NCBI GenBank assembly: GCA_964461915.1
Contig: CAYWVD010000001.1
Coordinates: forward strand, 565,911 to 629,910
Origin: an uncultured Candidatus Saccharibacteria bacterium
GTDB taxonomy: Bacteria; Patescibacteriota; Dojkabacteria; B142; OLB20
Direction: 5' to 3'
DNA: 64,000 nt
Shown: in pieces, positions 58,514-63,005 of the stretch
Position numbering within the stretch: the stretch's first letter is position 1
Layout: each line of letters begins with the position of its first letter
Made by a program: the position numbers and the translations under genes
The notes under the pieces: generated by a model
What the model saw: the letters and a program-made list of their open reading frames with translations, nothing else
Told to the model about the DNA's origin: nothing
The model's database searches: none

Positions 58514-59449
58514 TTATTGTGGAGTTGGGATATTATCCGCAGATGGAGTACCTGTAGGAGCCACCGTCGAATTGTCATCAAGGTTTATGCCCATATCAGC
58601 CAATTGGCTTATTAAGTTTGGACCTTGAGGATTTTCTTCCATCATTTGATTTGGTTTTGAACTTGAATCAACTGGAGATGGGCTTTGCTCAACTACTGGA
58701 TTAGCCTGGGGTTGAACTAATTGATCACCTGCAGGCAGGGTCGATTCAATGGGTTCATCTTCAATAATGGTTGCCTTAACAGGATTTATACTATCCATAG
58801 GATTAGGCGTTGGGATATTTATGGTGTTAGCTGTAGGTGGTTCGGGTGTAATTATGGGTTCCTCTTTAATAGTTGGAGTTGCTTCGGGGATGGCAGTTAG
58901 CCACTGTGGAGACTGCATTCCATCTGCCGCCAGAGTCTCAGGGGCCTTAATGCTTTCAGAGTTTGTTTTTTCACTTTTTTCGACTAACTCTTGATAGGAT
59001 TTAACTCCGTTTTCATCCAAGATAGCTTTAAGCTCTTTAAGGCCTTCCATAATTCCCTCTTTTCGGACCTTTATCAATTCTTCATTTTCTTTGAGGTAAG
59101 CAGATAGGTCATCTTTTTCTTGCTGGGTTAAATTTGGAAGAAGTTGGTCATAATATAGTTTAATTAATTGTTTGCTATTTGCCTGAATTCGATTAAAGAG
59201 AATAATGTTTTGAAGATAAGGCTTAAATCGGGTCTCAACATTTTCCAAATCCTCGGTATCAAGCACTTTTTGTACATCTTCTTCGGAAAACTTATTTTCG
59301 AGTAAATATTCTTTTATTGTTTCGTCAAATACAAACCCCACAGCTTCTACCATATCGGTATATATGTCTAGAGTTTTTTTGTCATCTTTCGATTTGAAAA
59401 GGATCGAAATTATATATGGATCCAGAGTATACAATAGGTCTTCGTTCAT
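58514..59449 (-). CDS. Hypothetical protein with helical N-terminal domain and Pro/Thr-rich disordered C-terminus
   Basis: 311-aa ORF. No TM and no known motif. The C-terminal third is low complexity (TPEPPTANTINIPTPNP...). Confidence 0.4.
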   Translation of the reverse strand: MNEDLLYTLDPYIISILFKSKDDKKTLDIYTDMVEAVGFVFDETIKEYLLENKFSEEDVQKVLDTEDLENVETRFKPYLQNIILFNRIQANSKQLIKLYYDQLLPNLTQQEKDDLSAYLKENEELIKVRKEGIMEGLKELKAILDENGVKSYQELVEKSEKTNSESIKAPETLAADGMQSPQWLTAIPEATPTIKEEPIITPEPPTANTINIPTPNPMDSINPVKATIIEDEPIESTLPAGDQLVQPQANPVVEQSPSPVDSSSKPNQMMEENPQGPNLISQLADMGINLDDNSTVAPTGTPSADNIPTPQ

Positions 59450-59470
59450 TTTGTGTTAATAATAATTAAG

Positions 59471-60826
59471 CTAAATTTTCATTATCTCCTCTAAAGTATT
59501 AACATGGGCTGTTTTTAAGAATATCTCAATTGCCTTTGCTTTATCGTAACCATGGGCAAGTGAGTCAATTAGTGCAGCCAAGGTTGTATATTCTTTGATC
59601 CCAGCGATTTCACCTTGAAGTCTCGCAGTTTCAAGACCTCCTTTTTTACCAATTTCTTCCTGAATCTTTAGCTTTGCCTCGAGAGCCTCTTTAGATAATG
59701 TAGCCAATTGTTTATCAAATGCCTGACTCAATCCAAATGCGCCAACGCCACCAACAATTGCGCTCATCCAAGCAAGTTGAGGATTACCAAGTAATAGGCC
59801 AATTCCACCGGCAGCTCCCGCACCAAGTGCAACCCAACCCAAATTTCGCAAAACAAGTTGGGCATACTTTTGATTTCTTTCAACCTTCTTTTCTTTAACA
59901 CTCAAATCTTGAATTTCATCCTTAATATCAGCTTGTTCTCTTTTGTTTTCAATACTATCAGATTTTGTTTTTAGTTGAGCCTTTATCAGAGCTTGTATAG
60001 GACCGGGTAAAGATGCAAATTCGGGAGTTGAGCTTATTTGACTAGATAGATTTGCGAAATCAATTGCTGTATCAGCGGTGATGGGGGTAGTATTAAAATT
60101 AGCCGCAAAAGTACCTGCATCAGTTTCGATATTTGTTTGTTCTGTCCGTTTTTTTGCTGCCTCAATCTTTTCGGGAGTTTCAGTAATTTTGGTTTTTATG
60201 GAATTAATAAGCTCAGGATTAGTAATGGTACCTCCTGGGGCTATCATAGTTAGAAGTTGTGCTTCCGTCAATGTTCCCGCTTCTAATTGTGCTTTGTACT
60301 CTTCAACCCTTTTATCTACAAGAGCCCTGGCTTGTTGTCTAATTGAGTCAGCTAGGTCTGGGCGATAAGCTGCTGTATGTCGGGTTTGAAGAGTCTGTAA
60401 ATATTGCTCAATATTTTGAGCCCCATTAATAATACTGTCCGCATGCATACCGGCAAGATGTTGTATGGCTTTAGACTTTACTTTTGCTTGAATATCAGCG
60501 GGAACGTCAACATTCCCAGTAGCGTTTTCTAATATTTTCGATTCAAGTATAGATGGGTCAATATTATCGGGTGTTGGTGGATTTGCTTGGGTTATTAGAG
60601 ACTGATTAGTTGCATTGTTAACCCTTGCATTATAAACATTTTCTACTATAGCATATTCAGCAGCTTTTGCGACATCTGCTTGAAAAGTGTCAATTGAGTA
60701 TGTGGCCCCAATACTGGCTATCTTACCTAACAACCTAGCTTTCTCAATGTTACTTTCAATGCCTGTGGCATTAACCTGTTCTCTTAGTGCTTTCAATTGT
60801 TCTGCGCTAACCGCTCCTGTTGCCAT
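59471..60826 (-). CDS. Hypothetical membrane protein with C-proximal glycine-zipper TM hairpin (paralog of 61090-62415)
   Basis: 451 aa. Long soluble N-terminal region, then LGWVALGAGAAGGIGLLLGNPQLAWMSAIVGGVGAFGLSQAFDKQ, then an 80-aa helical tail. Confidence 0.4.
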   Translation of the reverse strand: MATGAVSAEQLKALREQVNATGIESNIEKARLLGKIASIGATYSIDTFQADVAKAAEYAIVENVYNARVNNATNQSLITQANPPTPDNIDPSILESKILENATGNVDVPADIQAKVKSKAIQHLAGMHADSIINGAQNIEQYLQTLQTRHTAAYRPDLADSIRQQARALVDKRVEEYKAQLEAGTLTEAQLLTMIAPGGTITNPELINSIKTKITETPEKIEAAKKRTEQTNIETDAGTFAANFNTTPITADTAIDFANLSSQISSTPEFASLPGPIQALIKAQLKTKSDSIENKREQADIKDEIQDLSVKEKKVERNQKYAQLVLRNLGWVALGAGAAGGIGLLLGNPQLAWMSAIVGGVGAFGLSQAFDKQLATLSKEALEAKLKIQEEIGKKGGLETARLQGEIAGIKEYTTLAALIDSLAHGYDKAKAIEIFLKTAHVNTLEEIMKI

Positions 60827-60834
60827 AGCTAAAT

Positions 60835-61089: not shown

Positions 61090-62415
61090 TTATCCTATTG
61101 CAGTTAACATTTGATAATCGAGACTATTCATAAAAGTTTGTGTATATTGAGCGACTTGCTTTGGATCGATTAACCCTGAAATTCTGGCATATAATTCCGC
61201 GGCCTTTTGACTAAAAGCAATTGAAGCATTGGTTTCTCTACGTAAAGCAGCCTCTTCCCTTTGGGTTTTCACCCCCTCTTTTTTCTTAGCCTCTAATCTA
61301 GCCCGCAACATTTCAGTTTCAATTTTTTTCCTGTCAATGCTAAAATTCTTATCAAAAGCCATTCCACCCACTCCACCCACTATTCCTCCAGCTGCGGCAC
61401 CAAGTAATATTGTTGATACATCAATATTACCGGAAAGTAACATGGCTAATGAGGCACCAATCATAGCTCCACCCAGAAAGAATTTTGAATCTCTAAAAAA
61501 GATTTCTAACCTTTTTCTGTTTTCTATAGTTTTTTGCATATCGATCTCTTTTTGATCAAGCGCATCTTGATCAGGTCTTAGGTTCCTTTCTTCTTGTAAT
61601 CTTCTTGTCCTAAGCTCTGCTTGTTTTTTTAATGCGGCTCTTACCGCGGGGGAGATATTTAAATCTTGCCTATTTAGAATTTTTTCTAATTCTTCTTGAA
61701 TTTTATTTGTAACCCCCTCCGGAGTTAAATATGTTGTAACACCATTTGTCTCAGTTGGGCCCCCAATAGATCGAAATCCTACAGCTTTTTGTTTGGCATC
61801 AATTTCAATTTTTCTTTTTCGTATAGCCTCTTGAGCATCTTTATCGATAATCGCAGCAATTTGTTCTTCAGTTATTGCTACAATTTGAGCATCATTCAAA
61901 GCGGATATATCATTTACATTTTTATCTTTATATTTCGTTCTTTCAATTTCTTTTTTTCTTTCTCTAACGGCATTTTGAGCGTCCTGATTTGGGATTGTTG
62001 CGATTTCAGCTTCAGTAAGAGCTAAAATCTTATAATCCTCTAAACCTTGTACTGCAGATAAATCATATGCTTTTATTTCATTTCCTCTTATTAGTCTCCT
62101 TTTCCTTTCTGTAATAAAATTTCGGACACTTTCATCATGTATACCGTCTATTTTATCGCTAGTGATATTTAATAATGCTTCATCATCTATTTCCTGAGCT
62201 TCAGCATATGTTAATTGCGAATAATCGACCTGGTTTTCAGCATCGTTAAGATTTAATGCCGCCGCTAGATCAGTACTTGATTCTTGCACTGGCCTAGAAC
62301 TCCCTACAGTAGTATCCGATTCTTGCGAATATAGATTATTAATACCATCAGCACCTGGATTTTCAATACCTTGGGTACCCATTGCCCCCTCCTTTCGCCT
62401 TATTAATACTATCAT
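61090..62415 (-). CDS. Hypothetical membrane protein with three about 45-aa tandem repeats and glycine-zipper TM hairpin
   Basis: 441 aa (start may be the M of MGTQGIENPG at 62382). Repeats of the form ILALTEAEIATIPNQDAQNAVRERKKEIER / IVAITEEQIAAIIDKDAQEAIRKRKIEIDA. TM hairpin FLGGAMIGASLAMLLSGN...LLGAAAGGIVGGVGGMAFDKN. Confidence 0.4.
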   Translation of the reverse strand: MIVLIRRKEGAMGTQGIENPGADGINNLYSQESDTTVGSSRPVQESSTDLAAALNLNDAENQVDYSQLTYAEAQEIDDEALLNITSDKIDGIHDESVRNFITERKRRLIRGNEIKAYDLSAVQGLEDYKILALTEAEIATIPNQDAQNAVRERKKEIERTKYKDKNVNDISALNDAQIVAITEEQIAAIIDKDAQEAIRKRKIEIDAKQKAVGFRSIGGPTETNGVTTYLTPEGVTNKIQEELEKILNRQDLNISPAVRAALKKQAELRTRRLQEERNLRPDQDALDQKEIDMQKTIENRKRLEIFFRDSKFFLGGAMIGASLAMLLSGNIDVSTILLGAAAGGIVGGVGGMAFDKNFSIDRKKIETEMLRARLEAKKKEGVKTQREEAALRRETNASIAFSQKAAELYARISGLIDPKQVAQYTQTFMNSLDYQMLTAIG

Positions 62416-62662
62416 TAGTTACCTTGCCCTCTTCGACAAATTTGTCGTAGTCAAGGATTTTTGAGATGATTTCATCGGAAGATAGATTAGATTTTCTGTA
62501 TATACTAACTAGATTTCTCCAAATTTGATTACGGACCCTAGGCCCTGTAACGATGACCGGATTAGCCTTTTTGATCGAACTTAAATCCCCCTTTAATATT
62601 GAGGATAGTTGTTGCTGTGATGATGTTCCGGTACTCGACATAAGTAACAAAATAATTGGCAA
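62363..62662 (-). CDS. Hypothetical small protein (99 aa)
   Basis: ORF with a Ser-rich N-terminus. Overlaps the start of the downstream gene. Confidence 0.3.
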   Translation of the reverse strand: MPIILLLMSSTGTSSQQQLSSILKGDLSSIKKANPVIVTGPRVRNQIWRNLVSIYRKSNLSSDEIISKILDYDKFVEEGKVTNDSINKAKGGGNGYPRY

Positions 62663-62738
62663 AATTTAGACCCATTTAGCCTATATAATAGCTTTGCAGG
62701 AAACAAAAAAGAAGTCAACAACAAGCAGTCAAAAATCT

Positions 62739-63005
62739 TTACAAATTGATATCTTCCCCCATATAACCCATTCTTCGTTCGATCTTTTTTCTAAGATATT
62801 CGATAAGATCGAGAATGCCTTTTTGGCTTTCTTCGTCGAGTGATAAATCAAGAATTTCATCCTTGAATTTATTCAAAGAATCTAAAGCGACATAAAAATC
62901 GGTGCCAACTTCGAGGTTTGCCTCGGAATAGGTGTCATTTAAAGCCTTGCCTACTCTGGCAAGATGACTTATTCTTTGTCTTGTTGCTTCGTCAGGTTCT
63001 CTCAT
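62739..63005 (-). CDS. Hypothetical small acidic protein (88 aa)
   Basis: First ORF after the rRNA-operon terminator on the minus strand. No motif recognised. Confidence 0.3.
   Translation of the reverse strand: MREPDEATRQRISHLARVGKALNDTYSEANLEVGTDFYVALDSLNKFKDEILDLSLDEESQKGILDLIEYLRKKIERRMGYMGEDINL

Follow-up and report, generated by a model that had tools for sequence, protein, structure and literature searches.

What do the six consecutive genes between an rRNA operon and rpsA encode in the genome of an uncultured Candidatus Saccharibacteria bacterium, and on which membrane, if any, would their products act? We analysed a window of 64,000 nucleotides from this organism (GenBank assembly GCA_964461915.1, contig CAYWVD010000001.1, positions 565,911 to 629,910), which is bacterial and low-GC (about 30–40%) in composition. 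Saccharibacteria live as ultra-small epibionts and have genomes of about 0.8 Mb; unassigned genes are numerous in candidate-phyla bacteria with small genomes. To our knowledge, the envelope organisation of Saccharibacteria and the means by which they extract nutrients from their hosts are largely not understood. We found that the six open reading frames (ORFs) form a cassette that is conserved in place, very rare in sequence databases and built around a duplicated module of one small and one large gene. With a probability of roughly 0.4, we read it as encoding clade-restricted, hetero-oligomeric, coiled-coil proteins that would be anchored by helical hairpins in the cell's own membrane.

A conserved gene cassette beside the rRNA operon

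The six genes and the evidence that defines them are as follows (aa, amino acids):

62739..63005, minus strand: g88, acidic soluble protein of 88 aa (ORF and conservation)
62363..62641, minus strand: g92, basic partner protein of 92 aa, module 1 (public gene calls)
61090..62382, minus strand: g430, hairpin protein of module 1, with variable N-terminus, ALTTAQ-type repeats, coiled coil, Gly-zipper hairpin and tail
60835..61083, minus strand: g82, partner protein of 82 aa, module 2 (paralogue of g92)
59471..60826, minus strand: g451, hairpin protein of module 2 (ORF; six alleles aligned)
58514..59449, minus strand: g311, acidic protein (alignments and composition)

The original prediction had recognised six same-strand ORFs between the rRNA-operon terminator and rpsA, and this overall observation was confirmed, with corrections to two start sites and to the assignment of the hairpin motifs (see below). 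The 441-aa ORF most likely starts at the internal ATG at 62382, which is preceded by AGGAGGGGG and gives a product of 430 aa, and the 99-aa ORF with a TTG start most likely begins at the internal ATG at 62641, giving 92 aa. Both revised starts are those found in public gene calls on identical contigs. With these likely starts, the intergenic gaps in the order g88/g92/g430/g82/g451/g311 are 97, −20, 6, 8 and 21 nucleotides (nt): the 3' end of g92 overlaps the start of g430 by 20 nt, and g82 begins 6 nt past g430 and ends 8 nt ahead of g451. In two related cassettes (L008 and L080), there are start-stop overlaps of 4 nt. The tight spacing of g92, g430, g82, g451 and g311 is consistent with co-expression. 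The cassette occupies ∼4.5 kb, or ∼0.5% of the genome, and is separated from rpsA by 138 nt that include a near-consensus promoter of rpsA's own.

Comparison with related contigs showed that the full order (5S rRNA, g88, g92-like, hairpin 1, g82-like, hairpin 2, g311-like, rpsA, clpC) is kept in a close strain (L004), in a 'Candidatus Saccharibacteria' metagenome-assembled genome (MAG; L008) and in L079, and that the shorter contigs reaching into the block (L001–L007, L009, L077, L078, L080 and L082) have their genes in the same order. The closest genomes found via rpsA were L008 and L009, the latter an unclassified MAG, with rpsA identities to the window of 83% and 77% respectively. One of the relatives' contigs is labelled as coming from an activated-sludge metagenome and the rest come from Joint Genome Institute (JGI) metagenomes and public sequencing runs. 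The g430 product is identical to a protein (P0002) encoded on an 808-kb NCBI contig, and a homologue of g82 precedes every g451-type gene that we saw.

These observations bear on the simplest alternative, that the ORFs are spurious, be it all or part of them, for which one could cite the lack of a named homologue of any of them in any source. The original prediction had taken a lack of conservation in related genomes as the mark of spurious ORFs, and the block is kept in such genomes. The ORFs are long for a genome of 33–39% GC, and their order persists across species whose rpsA genes are 77–83% identical. Relative to L004, the ratio of non-synonymous to synonymous substitutions (dN/dS) is far below 1 for g88 (0), g92 (0.01), g82 (0.16) and g311 (0.11), and stays below 0.5 for the two large genes (0.49 for g430 and 0.40 for g451), the values for the comparison genes rpsA, clpC and radA being 0–0.06. 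The conservation of the ORFs thus refutes the spurious reading, to which we assign a negligible probability; judged from these comparisons, all six are real genes.

The cassette genes diverge at very different rates. In L004 the encoded proteins are 100% (g88), 99% (g92), 98% (g82), 85% (g451) and 63% (g430) identical to those in the window, the last two against 96–100% for the products of the flanking genes. The most conserved member, g88, retains 92% identity in L008, 78% in L079 and 57% in L080, whereas all others diverge fast between species: g451 and its L008 counterpart share only 17% identity where rpsA shares 83%. The GC content of the cassette and its GC content at third codon positions (GC3) are like those of neighbouring genes; since, in addition, there were no phage or defence matches, a recent import of the cassette appears unlikely.

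Sequence searches showed how rare the block is. Word-indexed searches of 5.8 billion proteins returned 1–3 matches (two when started from a 12-sequence alignment, a search whose listing was swamped by low-complexity candidates), and when 1.84 billion cluster representatives were scanned in full by HMMER, using a profile of the conserved C-terminal domain (C-domain) of the hairpin proteins, eight proteins were found at E ≤ 0.001, whose contigs share the gene layout wherever they are long enough. The lineage-specific character of the block that had been proposed is in line with these counts. None of the six proteins had a name in any source checked, no well-characterised family claims any of them, and there were no further paralogues of the cassette genes in the window. 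In Pfam, NCBIfam, PHROGs and PADLOC, searched with the six proteins and 16 family members, the ALTTAQ repeat was the only model matched above threshold; several members had sub-threshold glycine-zipper matches in Pfam and NCBIfam. PADLOC gave nothing for the hairpin proteins, its best match being BrxB for g88 (E-value of 0.005, 14.8 bits), and the profiles of g311, g92/g82 and g88 had no relative in the PDB.

Could the cassette be what is left of a prophage or another mobile element, with the large proteins resembling tape-measure proteins and the small ORFs encoding assembly chaperones? Tape-measure proteins are long and helical and often carry Gly-rich hydrophobic segments, the small-then-large ORF layout resembles chaperone/tape-measure gene pairs, and a PDB tape-measure chain matches the hairpin with an E-value of 0.42 when the full-length family profile is used. 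However, there was no noteworthy PHROG match: g451 had none, g430 had a weak one (E-value of 0.018, function not assigned) and the sole match below 0.001 was that of the L079 homologue of g430 to 'endolysin' (E-value of 5.6e-4). A tblastn search of 50,697 phage records yielded nothing, nor did IMG/VR contigs for g311, and a fold search of BFVD gave nothing significant (best E-value of 0.13). We saw no integrase, capsid or terminase among the neighbouring genes looked at, the base composition is that of the neighbours, and the chromosomal position between 5S rRNA and rpsA is fixed in all species seen. We regard this explanation as close to refuted.

The cassette has thus been kept at a fixed place by the rRNA operon across several species despite very fast sequence divergence, and it defines at least four protein families that are absent from current domain libraries. 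Coiled coils, glycine-zipper hairpins and ALTTAQ repeats have been described before, unlike the domain family, the module and the cassette, all of which are very rare; the new ∼200-aa stalk-hairpin-tail domain was found in only eight of the 1.84 billion representative proteins. The cassette is a well-delimited target rather than a demonstrated new mechanism, and there are many such targets in genomes like this.

Two deviations from the common layout were observed. L079 has an additional 187-aa ORF (5036-5599) between 5S rRNA and the g88 homologue in an otherwise identical cassette order; it contains an internal duplication (…EGPIDS.I.DVN.EAVN.GL.GNN.LGTT.GV…, twice), has no Pfam match and is missing from the window as well as from L004 and L008. 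In L084 (3-1327), a gene of the g451 type is broken into two ORFs of 240 aa and 196 aa (the latter P0007), a probable frameshift, pseudogene or assembly error.

A duplicated two-gene module and its hairpin proteins

The original prediction also described the two large proteins as a duplicated family of common architecture accompanied by small partner ORFs. In pairwise BLASTP, g430 and g451 are related weakly (E-value of 0.018, 23% identity over 180 aa). Comparison of the g430-type and g451-type C-domain family profiles with hhalign established the relationship, with a probability of 99.4% and an E-value of 1.1e-21 over 198 columns. The small genes that accompany them, g92 with g430 and g82 with g451, are paralogous too (probability of 96%, E-value of 4.4e-9 between family profiles). 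As both the small and the large halves are paralogous, the duplicated unit is a two-gene module consisting of a small protein of ∼85 aa and a hairpin protein, and this module is present twice, presumably through tandem duplication. The family alignment of g92 contains the conserved motif I-V-x-G-P-R-V-R-N-x-x-W-R-N-L-V. We also considered g88 as a third paralogue of g92 and g82 and rejected it (hhalign probability of 0.3–3.8%).

The shared architecture comprises a soluble helical region of ∼300–330 aa, two Gly/Ala-rich segments and a tail of 81–87 aa. The hairpin sequences had been exchanged between the two proteins in the original prediction: GAGAAGGIGLLLGN...AFGLSQAFDK is the sequence of the 451-aa protein, and GGAMIGASLAMLLSGN...GGMAFDK that of the 441-aa ORF. 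The parts of the two hairpin proteins are located as follows:

61753..62061, minus strand: ALTTAQ-like repeats of g430, about aa 108-210 (repeat units)
61093..61689, minus strand: conserved C-domain of g430, aa 232-430 (family profile comparison)
61354-61482, minus strand: Gly/Ala-rich hairpin of g430, aa 301-343 (hydropathy and (G/A/S)xxx(G/A/S)xxx(G/A/S) motifs)
60347..60826, minus strand: polymorphic N-terminal region of g451, aa 1-160 (six-allele alignment)
59474..60079, minus strand: conserved C-domain of g451, aa 250-451 (AlphaFold2 model and hhalign)
59717-59842, minus strand: hairpin of g451, aa 329-370 (hydropathy)

Each hairpin protein ends in the conserved C-domain of ∼200 aa, which consists of stalk, glycine-zipper hairpin and tail and is nearly stand-alone in P0010, a family member of 250 aa. 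An AlphaFold2 model of g451 aa 250-451, built from nine family sequences, had a mean predicted local distance difference test (pLDDT) score of 68, with values of 73–86 in the soluble helices. In domain numbering, helix 26-96 (71 residues) is followed by a turn, helix 100-120 (21 residues), the 54-residue return helix 123-176 and two short helices, and the long helices form an antiparallel stalk. In this model, the C-domain is a long stalk of antiparallel helices, at whose tip lies a helical hairpin with glycine zippers and marginal hydrophobicity. The tip is made of two Gly/Ala-rich segments of ∼19 residues, 3–8 residues apart, with overlapping small-xxx-small-xxx-small motifs; several overlapping (G/A/S)xxxGxxxG motifs (e.g. 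GAGAAGGIG and GGIVGGVGG) are found in both segments of both proteins. In the g451-type protein of L078 (1217-2632), the hairpin loop holds a Gly/Pro/Phe-rich insertion of ∼25 residues, GGGLPAIFGGTFQIPGLFGAPGLFPWGGF, so that the loop evidently tolerates large changes.

The flanks of the hairpin are basic and aromatic, with R/K-x-x-K/R-W/F ahead of segment 1 and F-D-K/R past segment 2. Basic flanks at both ends fit the positive-inside rule for a hairpin with both termini inside (N-in/C-in). Hydropathy analysis revealed no signal peptide or other hydrophobic segment in any of the six proteins besides the hairpins, and all six are cysteine-free. Lineage restriction stands from the earlier proposal of a lineage-specific envelope or surface module, as do the duplication and the partners. 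The surface location found no supporting evidence, as there is no signal peptide and the basic flanks favour cytoplasmic positions for both termini. A membrane association of the hairpin proteins is plausible, and the apolar tip probably inserts into a membrane as a helical hairpin.

The same features have been weighed against the possibility that these are soluble or peripheral cytoplasmic coiled-coil proteins in which the Gly/Ala segment serves as the buried core of an oligomer or as a monotopic wedge, the cassette then encoding an assembly that resembles a cytoskeleton or shapes membranes. Charged residues abound in the soluble parts, which are helical throughout; the hydrophobicity of the tip is weak (+5 kcal/mol for the second segment of g451 in a crude, position-independent Hessa sum), and the hairpin loop tolerates the insertion seen in L078. 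In the Foldseek search of the PDB with the C-domain model, the highest template modelling (TM) scores, 0.40–0.47, were obtained with Vipp1/IM30 filaments; these matches are non-significant (E-values of 1–2.5), as are all others in that search. A pair of apolar helices of ∼19 residues, joined by a short polar loop and bounded on both sides by aromatic and basic residues at the interface, is, however, the classic signature of a transmembrane hairpin, and we consider a soluble or peripheral location quite unlikely.

In contrast to the C-domain, the N-terminal regions of both proteins vary greatly. The statement in the original prediction that the proteins have no recognisable enzymatic motifs holds; orthologues of g430, however, pass the Pfam gathering score for PF20080 (ALTTAQ_rpt). 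The repeats are ∼48 aa long, with two clear units in g430 and a possible weaker third one upstream (aa 73), and their number in g430-type proteins ranges from two to five (P0003 and P0004 have four units each, L079 and P0006 have five). Against a gathering cut-off of 26.4 bits, the orthologues P0004 and P0003 score 34.3 and 31.2 bits and so pass, whereas L079-715 scores 20.8 bits and g430 of the window 16.2 bits (E-value of 0.0085); PF20080 was matched in five of the 16 family members. The likeness to PF20080 proteins therefore lies in the g430 orthologues above the threshold, while g430 of the window falls below it and the g451 type has no detectable repeat. A degenerate version (TLTEAQ) was considered for the g451 type, but a 12-unit repeat hidden Markov model (HMM) gave no score above those of shuffled sequences. 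We know of no function for the ALTTAQ repeat and found no relevant literature on it or on PF20080 in the library searched.

Between the window and L004, the differences in g430 are confined to the N-terminal ∼160 aa, where the proportion of non-synonymous differences (pN) is 0.40–0.56, and the C-domain is almost unchanged. In g451, pN is 0.19–0.34 in aa 1–120, 0.11 in aa 121–160 and 0.00–0.04 in the rest. The six g451 alleles comprise several divergent N-terminal sequence types, one of which (P0016) is an apparent mosaic of two others, and are almost invariant over residues 160–451. The N-terminal dN/dS of about 0.6–0.8 is below 1, and the proportion of synonymous differences (pS) of 0.2–0.8 is comparable with that in recombinant stretches of clpC (0.3–0.56). 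Relaxed constraint with recombination is thus enough to explain the variability; positive selection on the N-termini was rejected as an explanation, given a dN/dS below 1 and dS values like those of recombinant clpC segments. Diversifying selection on these regions is possible.

Synonymous divergence (dS) from L004 across 52964-63005 is itself a mosaic, with values of 0.01 for radA, 0.03 for g311, 0.04 for g88 and 0.15 for rpsA, and, at the higher end, 0.38 for clpC (which is mosaic inside the gene too), 0.44 for g92 and 0.50 for g430. Such a mosaic indicates frequent recombination between diverged lineages.

The cell's own membrane or that of a host

As the flanks follow the positive-inside rule and signal peptides are lacking, insertion into the cell's own membrane is the default. 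In the arrangement that we favour, the hairpin tip would insert into the cytoplasmic membrane of the cell, with the N- and C-termini remaining in the cytoplasm; glycine zippers would pack the two paralogues laterally into hetero-oligomers; and the stalks and the fast-evolving N-terminal regions, with repeats in the g430 type, would project into the cytoplasm. The small partners, translationally coupled to the large genes, may bind the conserved part of their cognate hairpin protein. If g92 binds g430 at all, its target should lie in that part, since g92 is 99% identical between strains in which the N-termini of g430 are about half identical. The remaining proteins, g88 and the acidic, linker-bearing g311, could be further soluble subunits or adaptors, and the cellular role could be to scaffold or organise a membrane, perhaps at the site where the epibiont contacts its host.

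Several observations weigh against this arrangement. The pLDDT of the C-domain model is lowest (43–49) exactly at the apolar hairpin tip, and the AlphaFold2 model of full-length g451 is poor to the point of being unusable (pLDDT of 42). The crude, position-independent Hessa sum is +2 to +7 kcal/mol for most family members; segments this weak are poor candidates for insertion by Sec/YidC on their own and are found more typically in proteins that are soluble before they insert. No significant homology ties any cassette protein to a function. Finally, dedicated partners, variable N-termini, a divergence to 17% identity where rpsA retains 83%, and an epibiotic organism would suit an exported protein directed at the host no less well.

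The last point leads to an exported, partner-assisted, two-component system of helical pore-forming or translocon-like proteins, modelled on ClyA-family toxins or type III translocators, whose tip would insert into the membrane of the bacterial host. The small partners would mask the hydrophobic tip and keep the hairpin proteins soluble, and the variable N-termini would meet the diversity of host surfaces. A dedicated small partner gene for each hairpin gene, a hairpin that is merely marginally hydrophobic, the polymorphism of the N-terminal regions with its mosaic-like allele, the epibiotic lifestyle and the existence of P0010, with its C-domain nearly alone, all suit such a system. So does the best PDB match of the C-domain profile, to the Vibrio cholerae toxin MakA (E-value of 0.005, 19.5 bits), which spans the pre-hairpin helix and the Gly/Ala head region; the match carries a bias of 6.7 bits, however, and its three PDB entries all represent one protein. 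Pore and pre-pore chains of AhlB and SmhB recur in the Foldseek top 30 with E-values of 0.66–1.9 and TM-scores of 0.25–0.36; these matches are not significant and lie among others to Smc arms, chemoreceptors and Vipp1. The pore form of AhlB has two extended helices with hydrophobic tips of 26 and 23 residues that cross the bilayer, and the components of AhlB-type toxins are <25% identical and have adjacent genes (PMC6602965), a build and gene arrangement comparable with those of the cassette.

We tried membership in the ClyA family via MakA and rejected it. With the full-length family profile the MakA match was lost and a phage tape-measure hydrophobic region was obtained instead; Pfam HBL/HlyE had no match in the 16 members even at E ≤ 10; and there is no signal peptide or known secretion signal in the proteins and no secretion apparatus among the adjacent genes looked at, so that no export route is visible. 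The N-terminal variability adds little, as relaxed constraint suffices at a dN/dS of about 0.6–0.8. The likeness to the ClyA family is thus at most a 'works like' resemblance, and we judge an exported pore or translocon of this kind rather unlikely.

That resemblance nevertheless deserves to be spelled out. Members of the ClyA family (ClyA, YaxAB/XaxAB, the tripartite Hbl, Nhe, Ahl and Smh, and MakABE) are, like the cassette proteins, weakly similar adjacent paralogues of roughly 270–450 aa with long antiparallel helices and a Gly/Ala-rich hydrophobic hairpin tip, which spans the bilayer in the pore form of the toxins (PMC6602965), and it is among these toxins that the C-domain has its best matches in sequence and fold, weak as they are. 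Unlike them, the cassette proteins have no significant sequence or fold match, no predicted five-helix tail bundle or beta-tongue and no evident export route; their hairpin lies at 70–80% of the chain, past an extra N-terminal region of 230–330 aa, its hydrophobic segments are weaker than those of MakA, and every large gene is accompanied by a small partner.

A related possibility has no detectable relation to known families: a two-component insertion system in which hairpin proteins kept soluble by their partners would be delivered to the host membrane and their glycine-zipper tips would assemble there into a pore or a conduit through which nutrients are taken up. Variation in the host surface would then be tracked by the polymorphic N-termini. 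We consider this unlikely as well, and leave the remaining probability to explanations that were not considered here.

Three other kinds of proteins invite comparison. Glycine-zipper hairpin families (Gly-zipper_Omp, Gly-zipper_YMGG, YiaD_Gzip_OmpA and DUF1269) have the same repeated (G/A/S)xxxGxxxG motifs and two adjacent short apolar helices, but they are small lipoproteins or membrane proteins without a 300-aa helical N-region, stalk or tail. Matches to them fell far below the cut-offs: NF053611 (YiaD_Gzip_OmpA) scored 23.4 bits against a required 175, and the best E-values were 1.2e-3 for Gly-zipper_Omp (in two of the 16 members) and 0.65 for YMGG. Type III translocator operons (ipgC-ipaB-ipaC-ipaD and lcrGVH-yopBD) encode small chaperones, two coiled-coil hairpin proteins and a hydrophilic protein of ∼310–330 aa. 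The resemblance is one of gene layout only: no search revealed homology, the small cassette proteins have 82–92 aa against ∼160 aa for the tetratricopeptide repeat (TPR) chaperones, there was no type III apparatus among the neighbouring genes looked at, and we know of no type III secretion in Saccharibacteria. The chlamydial Inc proteins, which are fast-evolving and lineage-specific, have a bilobed hydrophobic domain of two apolar helices and a short loop with cytosol-facing coiled-coil flanks. The cassette proteins share with them the hairpin flanked by coiled-coil regions, the rapid evolution and the restriction to a lineage, but the Inc hairpin lies near the N-terminus, Inc proteins leave the cell by type III secretion and enter a membrane derived from the host, and there is no sequence relation. 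We found no relevant literature on glycine-zipper or pore-forming proteins of Saccharibacteria in the library searched.

The choice of membrane determines what the cassette would mean. Hairpin proteins that act on the host membrane would offer a concrete handle on the mechanism of parasitism, and resident scaffolds would constitute a lineage-specific membrane skeleton.

g311, the S1 tail and the surroundings of the cassette

On the minus strand, the 3' end of the 23S rRNA is followed by the 5S rRNA, a terminator, the six ORFs, rpsA, clpC, radA and rho. The features that delimit the cassette, and those within g311, are:

63510-64000, minus strand: 3' end of 23S rRNA
63187-63303, minus strand: 5S rRNA (Rfam, 82.6 bits)
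63159..63176, minus strand: intrinsic terminator, the upstream boundary of the cassette (GC-rich 7-bp stem and T-run, after 5S rRNA)
63036..63064, minus strand: candidate promoter TTGACA-17-GATATT upstream of g88 (consensus match only, 10/12)
58955-59449, minus strand: conserved N-domain of g311, aa 1-165 (alignment)
58574-58621, minus strand: conserved peptide NLISQLADMGINLDD of g311, aa 277-292 (alignment)
58446..58474, minus strand: rpsA promoter TTGACG-17-TATAAT with TG, the downstream boundary of the cassette (11/12 consensus, best in the region)
56879-58375, minus strand: rpsA

The g311 protein consists of the conserved 165-aa N-domain, a variable acidic linker rich in Pro, Glu and Thr (aa 166–275) and the conserved peptide; it has no hydrophobic segment and no Pfam or PDB relative. 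The same layout is seen in the tail of the adjacent rpsA product, ribosomal protein S1, in which the S1 domains are followed by an acidic Glu/Lys/Val/Pro-rich repeat linker of variable length and an invariant C-terminal peptide, KKELAKEMGVSPEMERLKELLG(D/E)DD. S1 is 498 aa long in the window and 487, 473 and 430 aa in relatives. Among real genes in the window, the motif [DEN]MG[IV][SND] occurs only in rpsA and g311. The idea that the two C-terminal peptides represent a known motif was dropped, as neither tail has a Pfam match.

Elsewhere in the window, two ORFs of ∼90 aa inside the 23S rRNA gene (63686-63993, both strands) are spurious, and the same pair is present in L008 and L079. Four tRNA genes are clustered at 31648-32245, and the GC skew is positive only at 32–38 kb, where the long ORFs are mostly on the plus strand.

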